Of a DNA stretch of 48,908 nucleotides, positions 1,553 to 9,896 are shown one piece after another. The position numbers and the translations under genes were made by a program. The stretch is from a virus (lineage: Duplodnaviria > Heunggongvirae > Uroviricota > Caudoviricetes), in the IMG/VR virus record IMGVR_UViG_2897346870_000004, positions 1 through 48,908 of that record; one strand, 5' to 3'. Within the stretch, counting starts at the first letter, position 1. The number at the start of each line of letters is the position of its first letter. The notes beneath the pieces are model-generated. The model did no database searches. It saw only the letters and a program-made list of their open reading frames with translations, and was not told where the DNA came from.

Positions 1553-1741
1553 TCACGAGGACTGAAGTTGCTCGCAATTAAAATTTATCAGTTTTACTTT
1601 CTGCTCTCTGGAAACGCCTGCTTCTTTTTTACCTGAGAGCATTTTTTCGCATTCTGATTTGGTTAATTTTGTTTTTGAGTACCTTGTCCAGTTAGTAGGA
1701 GTGCCACCTTCCTTTTCAATAGTGGCGGTAATTTTATACAT
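1553..1741 (-). CDS. Hypothetical small early protein (62 aa)
   Basis: ORF with GGAGGTG RBS upstream of ATG at 1741; lies between lar and xis in the leftward operon. Confidence 0.4.
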   Translation of the reverse strand: MYKITATIEKEGGTPTNWTRYSKTKLTKSECEKMLSGKKEAGVSREQKVKLINFNCEQLQSS

Positions 1742-3055: not shown

Positions 3056-6000
3056 TCAGATGCTCAGTGCTTCAAGACGACGAAGATCAAAGTCGTTTAA
3101 TTCGTCGGTATAACTTTCGGTAATCGGTGCTGGCCAGTTGTTTGTCTCCAGGGCTTCGTTTATCTGGCGTAGCGTCCGGCGATATTCCTGTCGACCAAGT
3201 TCCAGGAGTTCCTGCGAGGCTTCCACGACTGCCACCCAGTGATAGCCAGCATCTTTGTTGACGAAGATCCAGAAAAATTTGTCCAGGTTTGCCACATCGC
3301 AATACATTGCGGCGCTGAGGTGATAATCACGCTCAATAATTTCACGGTGCAGGCGATCTTTAAGTCGTTCCTGTCGCACATAACCGAGGCTGACTGACTT
3401 CACGTCAGCGCAAATGCTTTCGTATGGCAGCCGGATTTCGATATCAGGACGGACCCTGATTTCCAGCCCGGTTTCTTCATCAAACCCGAAATAGCTGATT
3501 TCAGATTTGCGATCCGGGTGGTTGAGTAGCCTTGCTGCATCGGTATTGTTTTGCAGTGCCGCGTGAATATTTTTTGCCTGTTCATACATCTCCGGACTGA
3601 TAAACGTTTTCCCGGCATTTTCTTCTTGCTGGCGTTTTTGCCAGTCCTCCAGTGTCACCAGTTCCGGGCGAATTTTCCGTGCGATTTCGGTTAATTGCTC
3701 TTTTGTGCCACTGATGTTGTAAGGCAAAGATTTAGCACGTTCTTTTTTTGCCAGTTCTGGGTCTACAGTTTCAATTTGATCCAGAAGCTGCTCCCGTGCT
3801 CCACTGGTTTTCAACAGAGGAGGGAGGCTTGCGTTGTATTCTTTAATACAGGCTTTCATTGCTGATGCTGTGTGTTTTTCCCCCTCAGGAATACGCCGAA
3901 ATTCCACCGGAAGCGAACCGTAAAGGATGCCTGTTTCTTCGGCCCCGGCACTTACAGACAGTGGCTGTATAAGAGTGCTGTTGTAGCTTTCGATCCACTC
4001 TTTCATCTGCTCTGGTGTCATCAGTGCTGGCAGACTGGCATTGTGTTTTTTAATGATGGCGATCAGTTCGCTAGAAGTAGTAACCACATATTCAGGAACC
4101 GGTACCGGAATGGCATATTCATCAGCGAATTTATCCGTTTCCAGAACATAGCTGTGAATGATCCGCCCACGCAGCAGTGCATCACTTTCCTCGTTCGGAA
4201 TAGTTCCGGCAATGTGCCGTCCGTGGTAATACATCAGGCTGATACGGGCATCCTTCAGCATCGTGCTGCTTATTCCGTTGGCGGAGTGATAAACCTCGTT
4301 CGGGAGGTTTTCATAGCGGCCAGGCTCGAAATATGACGGCCACATGATTTCAGTTGCTACAGGAGCTGACGCTTCACCAGTTTCATCACTGCAATCACGA
4401 TGCGGATCGCTGCCAGCATTCTCATTGTGCGGATGTTCAGCGCCTTCCATTTCCACCGGATCTTTTTCCTTAGCTTCAACCTGATTCTCTTCATCGAATG
4501 TTTCCTGGTATGTTGCGTCGCCCGTCACCGCCCCACAGTCAGGGCAGTTATCTCCGCCAGTCTGACCGCAGGCATTGCAGACTATTTCCGGTTCCTGTTG
4601 CACTACTGCCTCAGGTTGTTTCACATCCGGGCTGGTTTTTTCCGTTTCTGGCTGGTTCTGGTACACAGAATCGCGAGTCTGGATCCCCTTAACCCATTTC
4701 GGATCGTTCGGGTCGCTAATTCCGTCAACAAATTCACCACGTGATGCAGCAAGCAATTTATCGGCATCGACAGGATTTTTTGATGGAATGTTTTTCCGGG
4801 CTTCATGGAGTTCTGCCCGCAGTTCCTGATATTTCGCATCAACAGAATTTACCTGTGACTGAGCATCCAGCGGCTGCGTGTCCTGATGATGTTCAGTTGC
4901 GTCCGGTTCCATTGTTTCAGCCTCTCCCTGTTCATCTGCCGTTGTTTCAGATGGTTGCGGTTTTTCTTCATCATCCTGTTTTCCTTCTTCTGTTACACGC
5001 TGCGGCATCGGGGCAGAGGAGCGACCGCAGGCAATATCCACGATTTCCGGATCAGGGTTGGCATGATCGGTTTCAGTCAGTACTTTGTTCAGATATTCAG
5101 TGACGTGCGCGGGGATGACCTCGATCCCAATTGGTGCTTCTTTCACGGACGCAACCACGATGGCGCGTGAATAATCCAGCCCGCCAGGCATGGTGATGAA
5201 TTTGTCGCGGAAAACAGAAAAGGGCGGTTTATTTTCAGCGATAATTTCCTCAATGCGTTTAGCGTGTGCCGGATGAAGGTTATAGATGTCCACGTCCATT
5301 GAACGGGCCAGTACGCCAGTGGCTACATCGCGCGCCAGTGACGTCAGATCGTGGACGAAACCTTCGCCGCGATCGGTGAGGTTCCCGCCGCCAGCATTAG
5401 CACCGGAAGCCGTGCGAGTGATGCGTGAAACACGATTCCCTTTTCGCCATTCTTTTGTCAGAAGACCGCGATCAATGTGTTCGGTATCCAGCCAGGCTGA
5501 AATGAAATTCTTAAATTCATAGGGCTGATGTTTTTTCGTGATAGAGAAAACCCCCTTAATTGCATCAGTCAGGCGGAGCAGGGCGGCATTATCCAGAGTT
5601 GTCGGTTCTGCCATGCCGCGTATGGCCAACAGCAGATTCTGGACATAGCTGTTTTCCTGATCCATCTCAAGAGCAGTAATGTGTTCGCGTTGTTCTCGGG
5701 TGGCATGATGCAGGTATTTCCGATCCCCGGCCGCATAGGTAAAAATGTGCAGAAGACGCTGTGTGAACCGCAAAGTAGATACAGAAACTTCGCAATCCTG
5801 GCAATCCCCGTGAGCGTCTGCCAGTGTGTTTTCTTCCTGCCCTCCCGTCAGTTCTTCGGTTTCCTGAGCATTCTCCTGATGGTGAACGTCGTCTGGCGCT
5901 GCTCCCGATTTTAGTTCCCAGGTCATGGAGTCTTTGCTGAGTTGATAGCGTTCACTCCAGGTAAAATCGATCTCACCTTCAGGGGGCAGGTCATTAACGA

Positions 6001-6178
6001 CAGGAAAATTCGTGGCAACAGCTTTAAAATAGCTGCTCAGTTTTTTACCTGACTTAACGATCAGGTAGTCCAGAGTGGCACAGGTCGATTCAAAATCGTC
6101 GCTTGCCCACAGGACGACGTCAGGTTCACCGGATGATTTTTTCGCTTTCCGTAACGGGAAGAGTGGTTTTGTGCTCAT
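3056..6178 (-). CDS. recE: Exodeoxyribonuclease VIII (RecE-like), 1040 aa
   Basis: N-terminus [46 protein letters not shown] matches recalled RecE; C-terminal region has a RecE/YqaJ-like PD-(D/E)XK pattern (RVRPDIEI ... DVKSV). Confidence 0.8.
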
Positions 6179-6805: not shown

Positions 6806-7020
6806 GATTCCGCCTTTACAGGTAAACCATCACGACCGAGGAAAACTTTAATCATGCAGTCAGTAATGCATGTTTTTGTGGTCAGGTTACGAATATATAG
6901 TTTTCGCTTTTTAATATTGTTTGCCGAGGCAATATATGTCCGGCCTTCATGAAGAACATAATCGCCAGGAGTCACACACTGACGTGGTATTTCATCAGTT
7001 CCGAAGTGATGTGCAATCAT
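6799..7020 (-). CDS. kilR: Cell-division inhibitor KilR
   Basis: [46 protein letters not shown] matches recalled KilR; GGAG RBS 6 nt upstream of ATG at 7020. Confidence 0.8.
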
Positions 7021-7461
7021 AATTATCTCCATTTTTACAAATGAACTTTGTTGATGCGGTGCCTGGTGCCTCCAGGTGACTGCAACCAGTTAACAATTAC
7101 AGTCGGCTTTCCCACCCAAACCAATAAGGACTAACATGACTTTTAACTGTGCCACGTGCGCTTAGCCGCATTCACCGCATCACAAAATTCACTTTAAAAA
7201 GGGCGGACATCAGCCGAACTTCAAGAAAAAAACTGATGCCGCCAGGACTACACACAGCAATGTCGTTATTTACAACCGGAGGCGCACACCCACCATTTAA
7301 ATTTAACAGACAAGACCGACTCTTTATGGATATCGGAAATGCGCCTTCGTGTTGTGCCCGGTTTTATTTCACCACCTCCGGGCTTCGGTGGTCTCGGCTA
7401 TACCCCTACAGCGAGAGCTTGTGTTAACATTTCAATACCCTTACAGTTGAGAGTTATTGAT

Positions 7462-7950
7462 ATGTTGGATGTATTTACTCCATTGTTGAAACTTTTTGCT
7501 AACGAGCCACTCGAAAGACTTATGTATACGATTATCATTTTTGGTCTCACTCTCTGGCTGATACCGAAAGAGTTTGCTGTCGCATTCAATGCTTATACTG
7601 AAATACCTTGGCTCTTTCAGATTATCGTTTTTGCCTTTTCTTTCGTGGTCGCCATTTCCTTCTCAAGATTGCGAGCACATATTCAAAAGCATTATTCATT
7701 ACTACCAGAGCAACGAGTATTGCTTCGTTTATCTGAGAAAGAAATCGCTGTATTTAAAGATTTCCTTAAAACAGGAAATCTTATTATCACTTCTCCTTGC
7801 CGTAACCCGGTTATGAAAAAATTAGAACGGAAGGGCATCATTCAACATCAGAGTGATAGCGCAAACTGTTCTTATTATCTCGTCACCGAAAAATACTCCC
7901 ATTTTATGAAGTTATTCTGGAACAGCAGGAGTAGACGTTTTAATCGTTAG
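7462..7950 (+). CDS. sieB: Superinfection exclusion protein B
   Basis: MLDVFTPLLKLFANEPLERLMYTIIIFGLTLWLIPKEF membrane protein matching recalled SieB; true start at internal ATG 7462, not the ORF-track start 7339. Confidence 0.85.
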   Translation: MLDVFTPLLKLFANEPLERLMYTIIIFGLTLWLIPKEFAVAFNAYTEIPWLFQIIVFAFSFVVAISFSRLRAHIQKHYSLLPEQRVLLRLSEKEIAVFKDFLKTGNLIITSPCRNPVMKKLERKGIIQHQSDSANCSYYLVTEKYSHFMKLFWNSRSRRFNR

Positions 7951-8102
7951 CTTACTGTGTGCTTCTCCAACCATCGGCGCGCACCAGTTTCGGTTTTAAA
8001 TGTTTTGCTTTTGGTATACGTCATGGCAGTGAACGTTCCATCCTGGTTGGGGAACACGCCGCACACCAGGGATTCGTTGTTGCCGAGGTCGATTTTTTGC
8101 AT
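7947..8102 (-). CDS. ydaF: YdaF-like small protein (51 aa)
   Basis: Hand-translated MQKIDLGNNESLVCGVFPNQDGTFTAMTYTKSKTFKTETGARRWLEKHTVS; overlaps the sieB stop by 4 nt, convergent. Confidence 0.5.
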   Translation of the reverse strand: MQKIDLGNNESLVCGVFPNQDGTFTAMTYTKSKTFKTETGARRWLEKHTVS

Positions 8103-8112
8103 TTTGCGAATC

Positions 8113-8247
8113 TCACATCTTGTTGCTACGTATAGCGACTTCTGCCTGCCAGAGATCCCAGTCGTTGCTGCGTAAAGCCTGCACAGCCTGGTTGTAAGTG
8201 ATACCGCAACAATCCATCAAATACTGAACTACTTCGTAATGCACCAT
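8113..8247 (-). CDS. ydaG: YdaG-like small protein (44 aa)
   Basis: Hand-translated MVHYEVVQYLMDCCGITYNQAVQALRSNDWDLWQAEVAIRSNKM with GGGGAGAG RBS; first gene of the leftward operon downstream of the left operator cluster. Confidence 0.5.
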   Translation of the reverse strand: MVHYEVVQYLMDCCGITYNQAVQALRSNDWDLWQAEVAIRSNKM

Positions 8248-8425
8248 CTTATCTCTCCCCTTAACGCCGGGTGGCGGAACTAACTGCTGCACTGCAAAAT
8301 TTGAATCCCGCCGTCATGTTCATACGCCTCGGGCTGGCTACTTAACCCCTGACCACTGCCTGGTAACTCGAAGTATTGCCCTGCGTTCTGTGGGGCGGGG
8401 TGGGTGGTATGCTGGAACTATAGGT

Positions 8426-8480
8426 AATGCCTAATTGATTGTCAATAGGCTATGCCTAATGTTTTGGGCGTAACCTAATA
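8426..8480. promoter_or_regulatory. Left operator-like cluster: ATGCCTAAT repeats at 8427-8435 and 8452-8460 plus a degenerate copy at 8472-8480
   Basis: Direct reading; the 22-bp segment 8440-8461 is the exact reverse complement of 9083-9104 on the other side of racR. Confidence 0.45.
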
Positions 8481-8554
8481 GGTGATGGCGACAGCAGAAA
8501 GTGATGGGGGGTTAAATAACGGAATCCAGGAGTTTTCCGTCAGACCATATAAGT

Positions 8555-9031
8555 TTAAGTTCCAGTTTTTGTGATGTTCTGGCTTTTCCGTTCAGATTCT
8601 AGAGCTTTCAGATACTTACCCACTTTCATTTCCATCGCTGCTATATAGGCGCGAACATCGTGGTCAACCCAATCTGGTTCTGTAGCATTTCCAGATAACA
8701 GGAAAGCTACAATCGCTCTTATTTCATCAGAGGCTGCTTGATAAAGGTTGTTTATATCTAAAAGTTCACTTTTTGTATCTGAATTGGTGGGGGTTGGTAT
8801 GGGGTATTCGTTAAGCCCCCAATGCTCTGGACCAACAACATCAGAAAAGAAACGCCATAATTCTGGAAGTTTATCTTTACTTATAGAGCCTTTCTTAATC
8901 CAGTCATAAATTGATGGTGGTTGGACTTTGAAGTGGCGTGCGACCTCCGCCTTTGATTTGACGGATCCCGATGCGATTTTTTTGTTAATGGCCTGCTCTA
9001 TCGCTCGGCCTAAGTCTTTACCACTAAGCAT
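8555..9031 (-). CDS. racR: Prophage repressor RacR
   Basis: 158-aa protein MLSGKDLGRAIEQAINKKIASGSVKSKAEVARHFKVQPPSIYDWIKKG with N-terminal HTH; divergent from ydaS; matches recalled RacR. Confidence 0.9.
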   Translation of the reverse strand: MLSGKDLGRAIEQAINKKIASGSVKSKAEVARHFKVQPPSIYDWIKKGSISKDKLPELWRFFSDVVGPEHWGLNEYPIPTPTNSDTKSELLDINNLYQAASDEIRAIVAFLLSGNATEPDWVDHDVRAYIAAMEMKVGKYLKALESERKSQNITKTGT

Positions 9032-9058
9032 TGCTTAATATTCTCCTATGCTCATTGC

Positions 9059-9126
9059 ATTAGGCAATCCCTACCCTTACCGCATTAGGCATAGCCTATT
9101 GACATTTATATTAGGCGTCGCCTAAT
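9059..9126. promoter_or_regulatory. Right operator-like cluster: ATTAGGCA(T) at 9059-9066 and 9084-9092, and perfect palindrome ATTAGGCG-T-CGCCTAAT at 9110-9126
   Basis: Direct reading; lies in the divergent racR/ydaS intergenic region about 30 bp upstream of the ydaS start. Confidence 0.5.
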
Positions 9127-9154
9127 ATTTCTGTGTGTTTTTGGAGTTCATTCG

Positions 9155-9451
9155 ATGAAAAAAGAGAACTATTCATTCAAGCAAGCTTGTGCTGTTGTCG
9201 GTGGGCAATCAGCAATGGCTAGGCTTTTAGGTGTATCACCTCCAAGCGTAAATCAATGGATCAAAGGGGTACGTCAATTGCCTGCCGAGAGATGTCCAGC
9301 AATTGAACGTGCAACAAGAGGTGAGGTTCTGTGCGAAGAACTTCGTCCTGATATTGACTGGTCATATTTACGACGTTCGGCATGTTGTTCGCAGAATATG
9401 TCAGTGAAGCAACTAAATGACAGTAACAAATCCTCATTTGATCATACCTGA
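9155..9451 (+). CDS. ydaS: Cro-like HTH protein YdaS
   Basis: 98-aa ORF with GGAG RBS; HTH segment QSAMARLLGVSPPSVNQWIKG; matches recalled YdaS. Confidence 0.85.
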   Translation: MKKENYSFKQACAVVGGQSAMARLLGVSPPSVNQWIKGVRQLPAERCPAIERATRGEVLCEELRPDIDWSYLRRSACCSQNMSVKQLNDSNKSSFDHT

Positions 9452-9473: not shown

Positions 9474-9896
9474 ATGAAAATCAAGCATGAGCACATCGAA
9501 TCAGTGTTGTTTGCCCTGGCAGCCGAAAAAGGGCAGGCATGGGTAGCCAATGCAATTACTGAAGAATATCTGCGCCAGGGGGGCGGCGAATTGCCCCTGG
9601 TTCCAGGCAAGGACTGGAATAATCAGCAGAATATCTATCACCGTTGGTTGAAAGGTGAAACGAAAACGCAAAGAGAAAAAATTCAGAAGCTGATCCCAGC
9701 AATTCTGGCAATCCTTCCGCGCGAGCTGCGTCACCGACTCTGCATCTTCGATACCTTGGAACGCCGTGCATTACTGGCGGCGCAGGAAGCGTTAAGTACG
9801 GCAATTGATGCGCATGATGATGCAGTCCAGGCCGTTTACCGGAAAGCGCATTTCAGCGGTGGCGGGTCTTCCGACGATTCTATCATTGTTCATTAA
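9474..9896 (+). CDS. ydaT: YdaT
   Basis: 140-aa ORF immediately downstream of ydaS; matches recalled YdaT. Confidence 0.8.
   Translation: MKIKHEHIESVLFALAAEKGQAWVANAITEEYLRQGGGELPLVPGKDWNNQQNIYHRWLKGETKTQREKIQKLIPAILAILPRELRHRLCIFDTLERRALLAAQEALSTAIDAHDDAVQAVYRKAHFSGGGSSDDSIIVH

Follow-up and report, generated by a model that had tools for sequence, protein, structure and literature searches.

The stretch of DNA analysed here very probably carries the immunity region of a Rac-type lambdoid prophage, in which the repressor RacR acts on two operator clusters flanking its own gene, racR, and so represses both a rightward early promoter (PR) and a leftward early promoter (PL). The original prediction had likened the layout to the OL and OR operators on either side of lambda cI. 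This likeness is supported by the presence of the same motif in both clusters, by promoters arranged as mirror images, by the association of the motif with the RacR DNA-binding domain, and by the derepression of leftward genes when RacR is lost. The RacR system and its right-hand operators are already known, and because the right cluster has been published, the right half of the finding is known biology. The left operator pair and PL appear to be undescribed, yet they are what lambdoid biology predicts.

The whole stretch, hereafter the window, is 48,908 nucleotides long. Its genes run, from the start, in the order intR, xis, the RalA sRNA, recT, recE, racC, ydaE, kilR, sieB, ydaF, ydaG, racR, ydaS, ydaT, ydaU and ydaV, an order that identifies the window as the early region of a lambdoid prophage of Rac type. 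Across the 901 bases surrounding the finding, identity is 99.9% to Escherichia coli FDAARGOS_497 and 98.3% to K-12, and racR and ydaS are the genes annotated in those matching sequences. In homologous DNA, the annotated genes to the left of racR are kilR, racC, recE, recT, ralR, xisR and intR. The racR open reading frame (8555-9031 including the stop codon, minus strand) encodes a 158-amino-acid repressor and is annotated as RacR in the 99.9%-identical DNA. To its right lie ydaS (9155-9451, plus strand), the first gene of the rightward operon, which encodes a Cro-like helix-turn-helix protein (Pfam YdaS_toxin, 2.6e-31; P22_Cro, 3.4e-9), and ydaT (9474-9896, plus strand; Pfam YdaT_toxin, 2e-11), whose product is a CII analogue (function in PMC11879457). 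YdaS and YdaT have been regarded as analogues of Cro and CII, respectively (PMC5917428, PMC11879457). On the other side, the first gene after the predicted PL is ydaG (8113-8247, minus strand), an open reading frame for 44 amino acids (Pfam UBA_4, 3e-5) annotated as 'phage protein' in two of the homologous loci (L001 and L005). The second gene of the leftward operon is ydaF (DUF1391; 7947-8102, minus strand), assigned from its open reading frame, homologous annotation and Pfam. As in other lambdoid phages, a Cro-type gene thus stands divergently beside OR, and PL is followed by genes for recombination, kil, xis and int.

The motif coordinates on which the original prediction was based are all correct on re-examination of the sequence. 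The nonamer ATGCCTAAT occurs at 8427-8435 and 8452-8460 with a degenerate copy, AACCTAATA, at 8472-8480, and on the right ATTAGGCA occupies 9059-9066 and ATTAGGCAT occupies 9084-9092. This 9-mer, which had been taken as the repeat unit, is only half of the true unit, the 17-bp palindrome ATTAGGC-N3-GCCTAAT. When the whole window was scanned for the 17-mer, with at least 11 of its 14 specified positions required to match, seven sites were found, and all of them lie beside racR (starts 8419, 8444 and 8463 on the left; 9023, 9059, 9084 and 9110 on the right). By first-order Markov simulation, 2.0 such matches would be expected in the entire window. The corresponding expectation for the 710-bp interval 8419-9126 is approximately 0.03, giving P of approximately 1e-14 by Poisson arithmetic, and the clustering of the motif around racR is genuine and greatly exceeds chance expectation. 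When up to one mismatch is allowed, the 9-mer shows no window-wide enrichment (10 found versus 14.4 expected). Measured between centres, adjacent sites in the left cluster are 25 and 19 bp apart, and those in the right cluster 36, 25 and 26 bp. The 25-bp spacing noted earlier for both clusters therefore describes one left gap and one right gap, and not the 19-bp gap on the left or the 36- and 26-bp gaps on the right.

Much is known about the right cluster. The 123-bp racR-ydaS intergenic region carries three GCCTAA/TTAGGC repeats, and RacR forms three complexes with this region in EMSA and enriches it in ChIP-qPCR (Krishnamurthi et al., 2017; PMC5700373). DNase I footprinting of RacR subsequently gave the half-site ATTAGGC and inverted repeats named O1-O3, of which O1 is located at the promoter of ydaST and O3 covers the start codon of racR (Wisniewska et al., 2022; PMC9638921). 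In the same study, the promoter PydaS was assigned to TTGACA/TAATAT by primer extension and mutagenesis, mutagenesis of the -10 element of PydaST abolished promoter activity, and a leaderless racR promoter was also mapped. [quoted passage not shown] RacR is an octamer by size-exclusion chromatography, which has been read as four dimers on four intergenic inverted repeats (PMC11014345).

The right-hand sites of the window match the K-12 RacR operators O1-O3 in position and sequence, and share with them the ATTAGGC half-site and the PydaS hexamers. OR1 (9110-9126; inverted repeat I14), which is the published O1, reads ATTAGGCGTCGCCTAAT and matches the motif at 14/14 positions, confirming that this site is a perfect 17-bp palindrome; the K-12 O1 is GTTAGGCGTCGCCTAAT instead. 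OR2 (9084-9100; ATTAGGCATAGCCTATT; 13/14) corresponds in position and sequence to the O2 inverted repeat of the RacR footprint (PMC9638921) and overlaps the -35 element of PR, which is PydaST. A promoter scan places this element, TTGACA, at 9099-9104 on the plus strand, as mapped previously (PMC9638921, PMC11879457), and the -10 element, TAATAT, at 9123-9128 on the same strand with an 18-nt spacer. The next site, at 9059-9075 (ATTAGGCAATCCCTACC; 11/14), has one good half. It is lineage-specific, being present in Escherichia loci and missing in other genera, and it has been counted among the 'four inverted repeats' of the octamer model (PMC11014345). The fourth site (9023-9039; ACTAAGCATTGCTTAAT; 11/14) lies over the racR start codon and was absent from the original prediction; it is O3 of PMC9638921, whose published sequence ACTAAGCATTGCTTAATATTCTC matches 9023-9045. 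Next to it, at 9040-9045 on the minus strand, is GAGAAT, the -10 hexamer of the leaderless racR promoter PracR3, which was defined by mutagenesis in PMC9638921 and whose position was read here from the window sequence. The right-hand sites are thus the region that has been footprinted and shifted in EMSA (PMC5700373, PMC9638921), and the expectation that they control the ydaS-ydaT transcript agrees with the published operators and with repression at PydaST.

The left cluster has the same organization. A promoter scan predicts PL on the minus strand with a perfect consensus -35 element (TTGACA, 8440-8445) and, after a 17-nt spacer, the -10 element TATAGT (8417-8422); 11 of the 12 hexamer positions match the consensus. 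The predicted promoter points leftward into ydaG-ydaF-kilR-recET-xis-int. OL2 (8444-8460; AATAGGCTATGCCTAAT; 13/14) is the exact reverse complement of OR2 and differs from the footprinted K-12 OR2 by one spacer base. OL1 (TATAGGTAATGCCTAAT) occupies 8419-8435, between the -35 and -10 elements, and is imperfect, with 11 of 14 positions matching. Both sites belong to the RacR operator family defined as T/ATAGGC-N3-GCCTAT/A (PMC9638921). On each side of racR, O2 overlaps the -35 element by 2 bp, and O1 takes up the spacer and extends 4 bp into the -10 element. When PL and PR are aligned in the same sense, 22 identical bases comprising O2 and the -35 element are followed by O1 and the -10 element, with a single 1-nt indel. 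Positions 8440-8461 and 9083-9104 are confirmed to be exact reverse complements of each other (inverted repeat I1, 22 nt), and the alignment explains this block as O2 together with the -35 hexamer TTGACA. The operators therefore cover the -35 and -10 elements of two outward-facing early promoters, of which PR has been mapped and PL is predicted.

A weak third site on the left, OL3 (8463-8479; TTTGGGCGTAACCTAAT; 11/14), is centred 19 bp from OL2. Scanning of the homologous loci with the 17-mer did not reveal OL3 outside Escherichia. Its functional status is doubtful because of this absence, and because 8 of its 17 columns vary when the left region is compared column by column in 38 distinct haplotypes of E. 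coli type. In the same comparison, variable columns number 2 of 17 in OL1 and 3 of 17 in OL2 (two of them in the N3 spacer), 0 of 6 in the PL -35 hexamer and 1 of 6 in the -10 hexamer. The corresponding figures are 28 of 71 for the upstream flank (8480-8550) and 26 of 86 for the downstream flank (8331-8416), so that OL1 and OL2 together have 5 variable columns in 34 versus 54 in 157 for the flanks. RNA structures in the vicinity were also considered. The PL leader RNA (8285-8411, minus strand) gave no sign of being structured or put/nut-like (z of +0.8, no Rfam match), and a hairpin considered as an intrinsic terminator between racR and OL3 (8517-8542, minus strand) is followed only by UAUUU and folds no better than shuffled sequences (z of -0.02).

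Published work bears on the left side through expression data. Depletion of RacR raises expression of ydaG, ydaF, kilR, racC, recET, xisR and intR by 40- to 70-fold or more (PMC6765115; bioRxiv 10.64898/2026.09.06.749655), although this leftward derepression could come about by an indirect route, via YdaS, YdaT, or excision and replication. The papers on K-12 RacR differ from the present account in that sites downstream of racR go unmentioned; in those describing its operators, 'ydaG' occurs only in RNA-seq lists, and neither 'loop' nor 'left operator' is present. We found no description of left operators, a ydaG promoter or looping in the Rac literature, where an older account in a subscription journal is possible. 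Literature searches likewise gave no RacR binding, footprint or transcription start site data for the left cluster and nothing relevant among genome-wide RacR binding data (ChIP-exo, DAP-seq, gSELEX), and the OxyS/kilR paper holds no promoter data. We infer the occupancy of the left sites by RacR from their sequence identity with OR2 and from their conservation, and the activity of PL is likewise a prediction.

To assess conservation, loci with RacR homologues were gathered from phage records, viral contigs and species-representative genomes, and were scanned with the 17-mer. The right cluster is present at every genuine RacR homologue locus, and a left pair with 25-bp spacing is present at all but one, such that 11 of 12 lineages carry clusters of the same motif on both sides of the repressor gene. 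Loci with the left pair include E. coli Rac variants (~87% DNA identity and ~92% protein identity to the window), Escherichia ruysiae, Mixta, Morganella, Proteus, Klebsiella phage KpF5, an Achromobacter metagenome-assembled genome and Pigmentiphaga. In alignments anchored on OL2, the series O2, TTGACA, ~4 nt, O1 and -10 element is kept in the midst of unrelated sequence. OL1 is retained in 11 lineages at a constant 25 bp from OL2; the PL -35 element is TTGACA in 10 of 11 lineages (TTGACT in Proteus, L013), with unrelated flanks; and the -10 position is occupied by TAATAT in other genera, or by TACTAT in one Achromobacter locus. A symmetrised logo of 44 sites shows that TAGG/CCTA is invariant and that the N3 spacer is variable. 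Outside the two clusters, only two sites matching at 11 or more of the 14 positions occur in ~89 kb from 11 lineages.

The motif is therefore conserved in Rac-like prophages, as the original prediction required, and the sole exception is Klebsiella sp. R390 (L012). There, no left pair occurs within 5 kb, and decay of the locus is suggested because the PR -35 element and O1 are degraded too. Three further candidates (L016-L018) were rejected as RacR homologues, having 40-47% identity over 38-45 residues and no motif. The distance from OR2 to OL2 ranges from 591 to 2154 bp across loci; where it is long, the genes between the repressor and OL encode an HSDR_N-domain protein (KpF5) or are small open reading frames (Pigmentiphaga). 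Expressed in helical turns, this distance is ~61.0 in E. coli and 58.5, 56.3, 59.9 and 115 to 205 elsewhere, and the idea of a conserved helical phasing between OL and OR was dropped because the turn counts differ among lineages.

Conservation of the operators parallels that of one part of the repressor. Residues 1-73 of RacR, which include the stretch PSI(Y/H)DWI(K/N)KGSISK(D/E)KLPELW, are nearly invariant in all lineages, and the C-terminal part diverges. In Pfam searches the RacR of the window gave a weak match to HTH_17 and did not qualify as Peptidase_S24; E. coli RacR is outside the S24 cI/LexA family. At two beta-proteobacterial loci, from Achromobacter and Pigmentiphaga, the C-terminal part is a Peptidase_S24 domain (1e-13 and 4e-15). 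Because the same two-sided operators accompany different C-terminal domains, these comparisons of sequence argue strongly that it is the N-terminal domain of RacR that reads both clusters.

The limits of the exchangeable unit can be seen in the distribution of homologous DNA. About two-thirds of the matching E. coli genomes match only from window position 8300 to ~8411, and heteroimmune phages share the leader (8250-8410) and diverge beyond it. In phage vB_EcoS-666R9, for example, homology ends at the equivalent of ~8410 and is followed by a different repressor, which has its own repeats of the GTACTT/AAGTAC type on either side. The edge of the immunity module is thus near 8410, just downstream of the PL -10 element, and from the position of this break the left operators and racR form one exchangeable immunity cassette.

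Other explanations for the left cluster were weighed against RacR-mediated repression of PL. The left sites could serve mainly the Cro-like YdaS, or YdaT, to damp early leftward transcription after induction. There is precedent in prophage CP-933P, where PaaR2 and YdaS both regulate PL933P and their footprints overlap (PMC8630535), and YdaS is a Cro-type helix-turn-helix protein that represses its own promoter (PMC9638921). The motif, however, was itself derived from RacR footprints, and it accompanies the RacR-type N-terminal domain even where a different Cro-like gene is adjacent (L002). The YdaT box is a different sequence, ATGATT-N6-AATCAA, and shared binding by YdaS would supplement RacR rather than supplant it, and we consider a role mainly for these proteins quite unlikely. 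More improbable is that the left cluster is a functionless relic of duplication or gene conversion of PR and its operators, with the leftward genes controlled only indirectly. Recent gene conversion could account for the perfect 22-bp identity between the two sides, OL3 is decaying in E. coli haplotypes, and literature searches gave no left-side binding data. A relic would not be expected to keep O2, -35, O1 and -10 in at least eight genera while flanks diverge fully and the distance to the repressor varies, to have E. coli substitutions that avoid half-sites and hexamers, or always to face the downstream gene on the correct strand.

Two further proposals dispense with left operators altogether, and both fare worse. 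If RacR-YdaS-YdaT were a self-contained toxin-repressor module, its operators would be purely intergenic and the left repeats unrelated to it. Databases do label the proteins 'toxin YdaS' and 'toxin YdaT', and in published models the intergenic region accommodates all four dimers of the octamer (PMC11014345). Against such a module, which we regard as very remote, the motif and promoter architecture are identical in kind on both sides, the neighbouring genes amount to a full early region of lambdoid type, in which int, xis, recET and kil lie leftward and the replication genes rightward, and leftward genes are derepressed upon RacR depletion; Jobling's critique takes the same lambdoid view (PMC5917428). 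Nor is this a type II toxin-antitoxin system, in the sense of a two-gene operon autoregulated from a single operator, because the operators flank a separate, divergent repressor gene and would control two long early operons. Least probable of all is that the palindromes are not protein operators but work as RNA or DNA structures, either hairpin terminators or cruciforms, to end the transcription of racR or convergent transcription. A terminator scan did pick out stem-loops with a T run after them at 8446-8458 and 9108-9128, but such matches are no commoner than in shuffled sequences (2 found, 1.3 expected), for which reason the palindromes were rejected as terminators. Moreover, the stems are short with only three G-C pairs, the right-hand sites carry RacR footprints (PMC9638921), and the pattern of variation, in which the N3 spacer and outer positions change and TAGG/CCTA does not, fits a dimeric helix-turn-helix protein.

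In the favoured scheme of a two-sided immunity region, RacR would be the analogue of lambda cI, its dimers binding the 17-bp palindromes of the two clusters around racR. Occupancy of O1 and O2 is expected to occlude PR and PL: as O2 lies on the -35 element and O1 over the spacer and -10 element, bound repressor would exclude RNA polymerase. The right pair (9084-9126) would thereby shut off PR and expression of ydaS (Cro-like), ydaT (CII-like) and the replication genes, and the left pair (8419-8460) would do the same at the mirror-image PL for ydaG, ydaF, kilR, racC, recE, recT, ralR, xis and int. The additional right-hand sites (9059-9075 and 9023-9039) may cover the racR promoters and provide autoregulation.

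The resemblance to lambda extends to several features. In both, the repressor gene has a cluster of 17-bp pseudo-palindromic operators on either side, with O1 and O2 covering the -10 and -35 elements of early promoters that diverge from each other. The first gene to the right is Cro-like, and the genes for recombination, kil, xis and int are found to the left. The repressor is translated from a leaderless transcript and is an octamer in solution (for RacR, PMC11014345). The cargo genes that RacR relatives carry between the repressor and OL occupy the position of rexAB. The two systems differ in operator sequence, which is unrelated, and in that E. coli RacR is without an S24 autocleavage domain and has a different C-terminal fold (PMC11014345). 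OL and OR are ~0.64 kb apart here versus ~2.3 kb in lambda, the Rac arrangement has four sites on the right and two strong sites on the left, and an N-like antiterminator was not found downstream of PL. Repression of racR by YdaS is reportedly absent (PMC9638921), and for this reason the switch is not a strict copy of that of lambda. CP-933P of E. coli O157:H7 is likewise a lambdoid cryptic prophage with YdaS/YdaT-type analogues of Cro and CII and an octameric repressor (Jurenas, 2021; PMC8630535). Its repressor is PaaR2, however, its operators are GTTTAGTAA-type repeats, and a toxin-antitoxin pair lies inside the repressor operon. Moreover, PL933P with its operators OL1-3 has been identified and tested experimentally (PMC8630535), whereas PL here is predicted.

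The two operator clusters may also cooperate through the RacR octamer. As a tentative proposal, one that we find plausible but somewhat doubtful, the OL pair may be the partner of O1 and O2, with the RacR octamer bridging OL and OR through a ~0.64-kb loop instead of placing four dimers on the intergenic region, and with the same operator pair shared by repressors that have unrelated C-termini. Such a loop would explain why the near-consensus PydaST and PL are silenced so extremely tightly, and it would also influence the autoregulation of racR by feedback. One operator pair would then serve either an octamerising RacR C-terminus or an autocleaving S24 C-terminus.

As a textbook lambdoid switch, the Rac immunity region has little bearing on general biology. 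For Rac itself, RacR acts in present models as a purely local repressor, directed at the 'toxins' YdaS and YdaT, with the whole octamer on the racR-ydaS intergenic region. Conserved left operators over a consensus leftward promoter would directly explain why kilR, recET, xis and int are derepressed together upon loss of RacR, and the left operator pair makes looping between OL and OR directly testable. Across the family, the pairing of one DNA-binding domain and its operators with either a non-cleavable or an S24 C-terminus provides a natural comparison of non-inducible and SOS-inducible switches.

The right operators of the window differ slightly from those of K-12. O1 of the window (9110-9126) is a perfect palindrome, and O1 of the K-12 locus (2312-2328) reads GTTAGGCGTCGCCTAAT and matches the operator unit ATTAGGC-N3-GCCTAAT at 13 of the 14 specified positions. 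OR2 of the window (9084-9100) is identical to the left operator OL2; the spacer of OR2 in K-12 (2286-2302) is one base different from that of OL2. On the left side, the sequence CATCACCTATTAGG at 8480-8494, located at the distal edge of OL3 and containing a back-to-back pair of half-sites (ACCTA-T-TAGGT), does not vary among the 38 E. coli haplotypes, although the remainder of OL3 does. Between these sites and racR, 13 nt past the stop codon of racR, lies the hairpin ACGGAAAACUCCUGGAUUCCGU (8517-8542, minus strand), with UAUUU after it. It is a weak candidate for a terminator between racR and the predicted leftward promoter PL, but its fold is not better than those of shuffled sequences.

Downstream of PL, the leader (8250-8410) is 86-98% identical to sequences of many lambdoid prophages and phages that carry other immunity regions, and this homology stops at about 8410, the expected transcription start site of PL. 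The transcribed strand of the leader is C-rich. Folding of the leader revealed no unusual structure (z +0.8), and a search of the same region against Rfam gave no match.

Farther along the predicted PL operon, an Rfam search of the window placed two sub-threshold matches in the sieB-kilR gap, both on the minus strand: a DicF-like match at 7201-7256 (39.1 bits versus a gathering score of 48, E 2.5e-6) and an STnc100-like match at 7013-7199 (35.5 bits versus 47). These matches therefore lie within the operon and immediately 5′ of the division inhibitor gene kilR, an arrangement that parallels dicF-dicB of the Qin prophage. Near the distal end of the operon, the ralR/RalA type I toxin-antitoxin pair is confirmed by a match to the RalA antitoxin small RNA (1557-1735, plus strand) whose score of 215 bits exceeds the Rfam gathering score.

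Contig JARKOR010000130.1 (5.2 kb), which was binned to 'Candidatus Nanosynbacter', carries the same operators together with a racR gene whose product shows 100% identity to RacR of E. coli; the metagenome-assembled genome was probably contaminated with E. coli DNA. The repressors of the Achromobacter (5001-6098) and Pigmentiphaga (5001-5906) loci join an N-terminal domain of the RacR type, with 74-75% identity across residues 1-77, to a Peptidase_S24 C-terminal domain, and both loci retain ATTAGGC-N3-GCCTAAT operators on the two sides of the repressor. In the heteroimmune relative, phage vB_EcoS-666R9, the two-sided design is shared but the specificity is swapped, as a different 139-aa repressor lies between its own GTACTT/AAGTAC-type repeats (2660-2720 and 3225-3270).

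In Klebsiella phage KpF5 (928-2082, minus strand) and Klebsiella sp. R390 (from about 5645 onward), a gene for a protein with an HSDR_N domain, which forms the N terminus of the R subunit in type I restriction, separates the repressor from the left operators. Because this gene fills the slot equivalent to that of rexAB in lambda, it may be cargo expressed in the lysogen.
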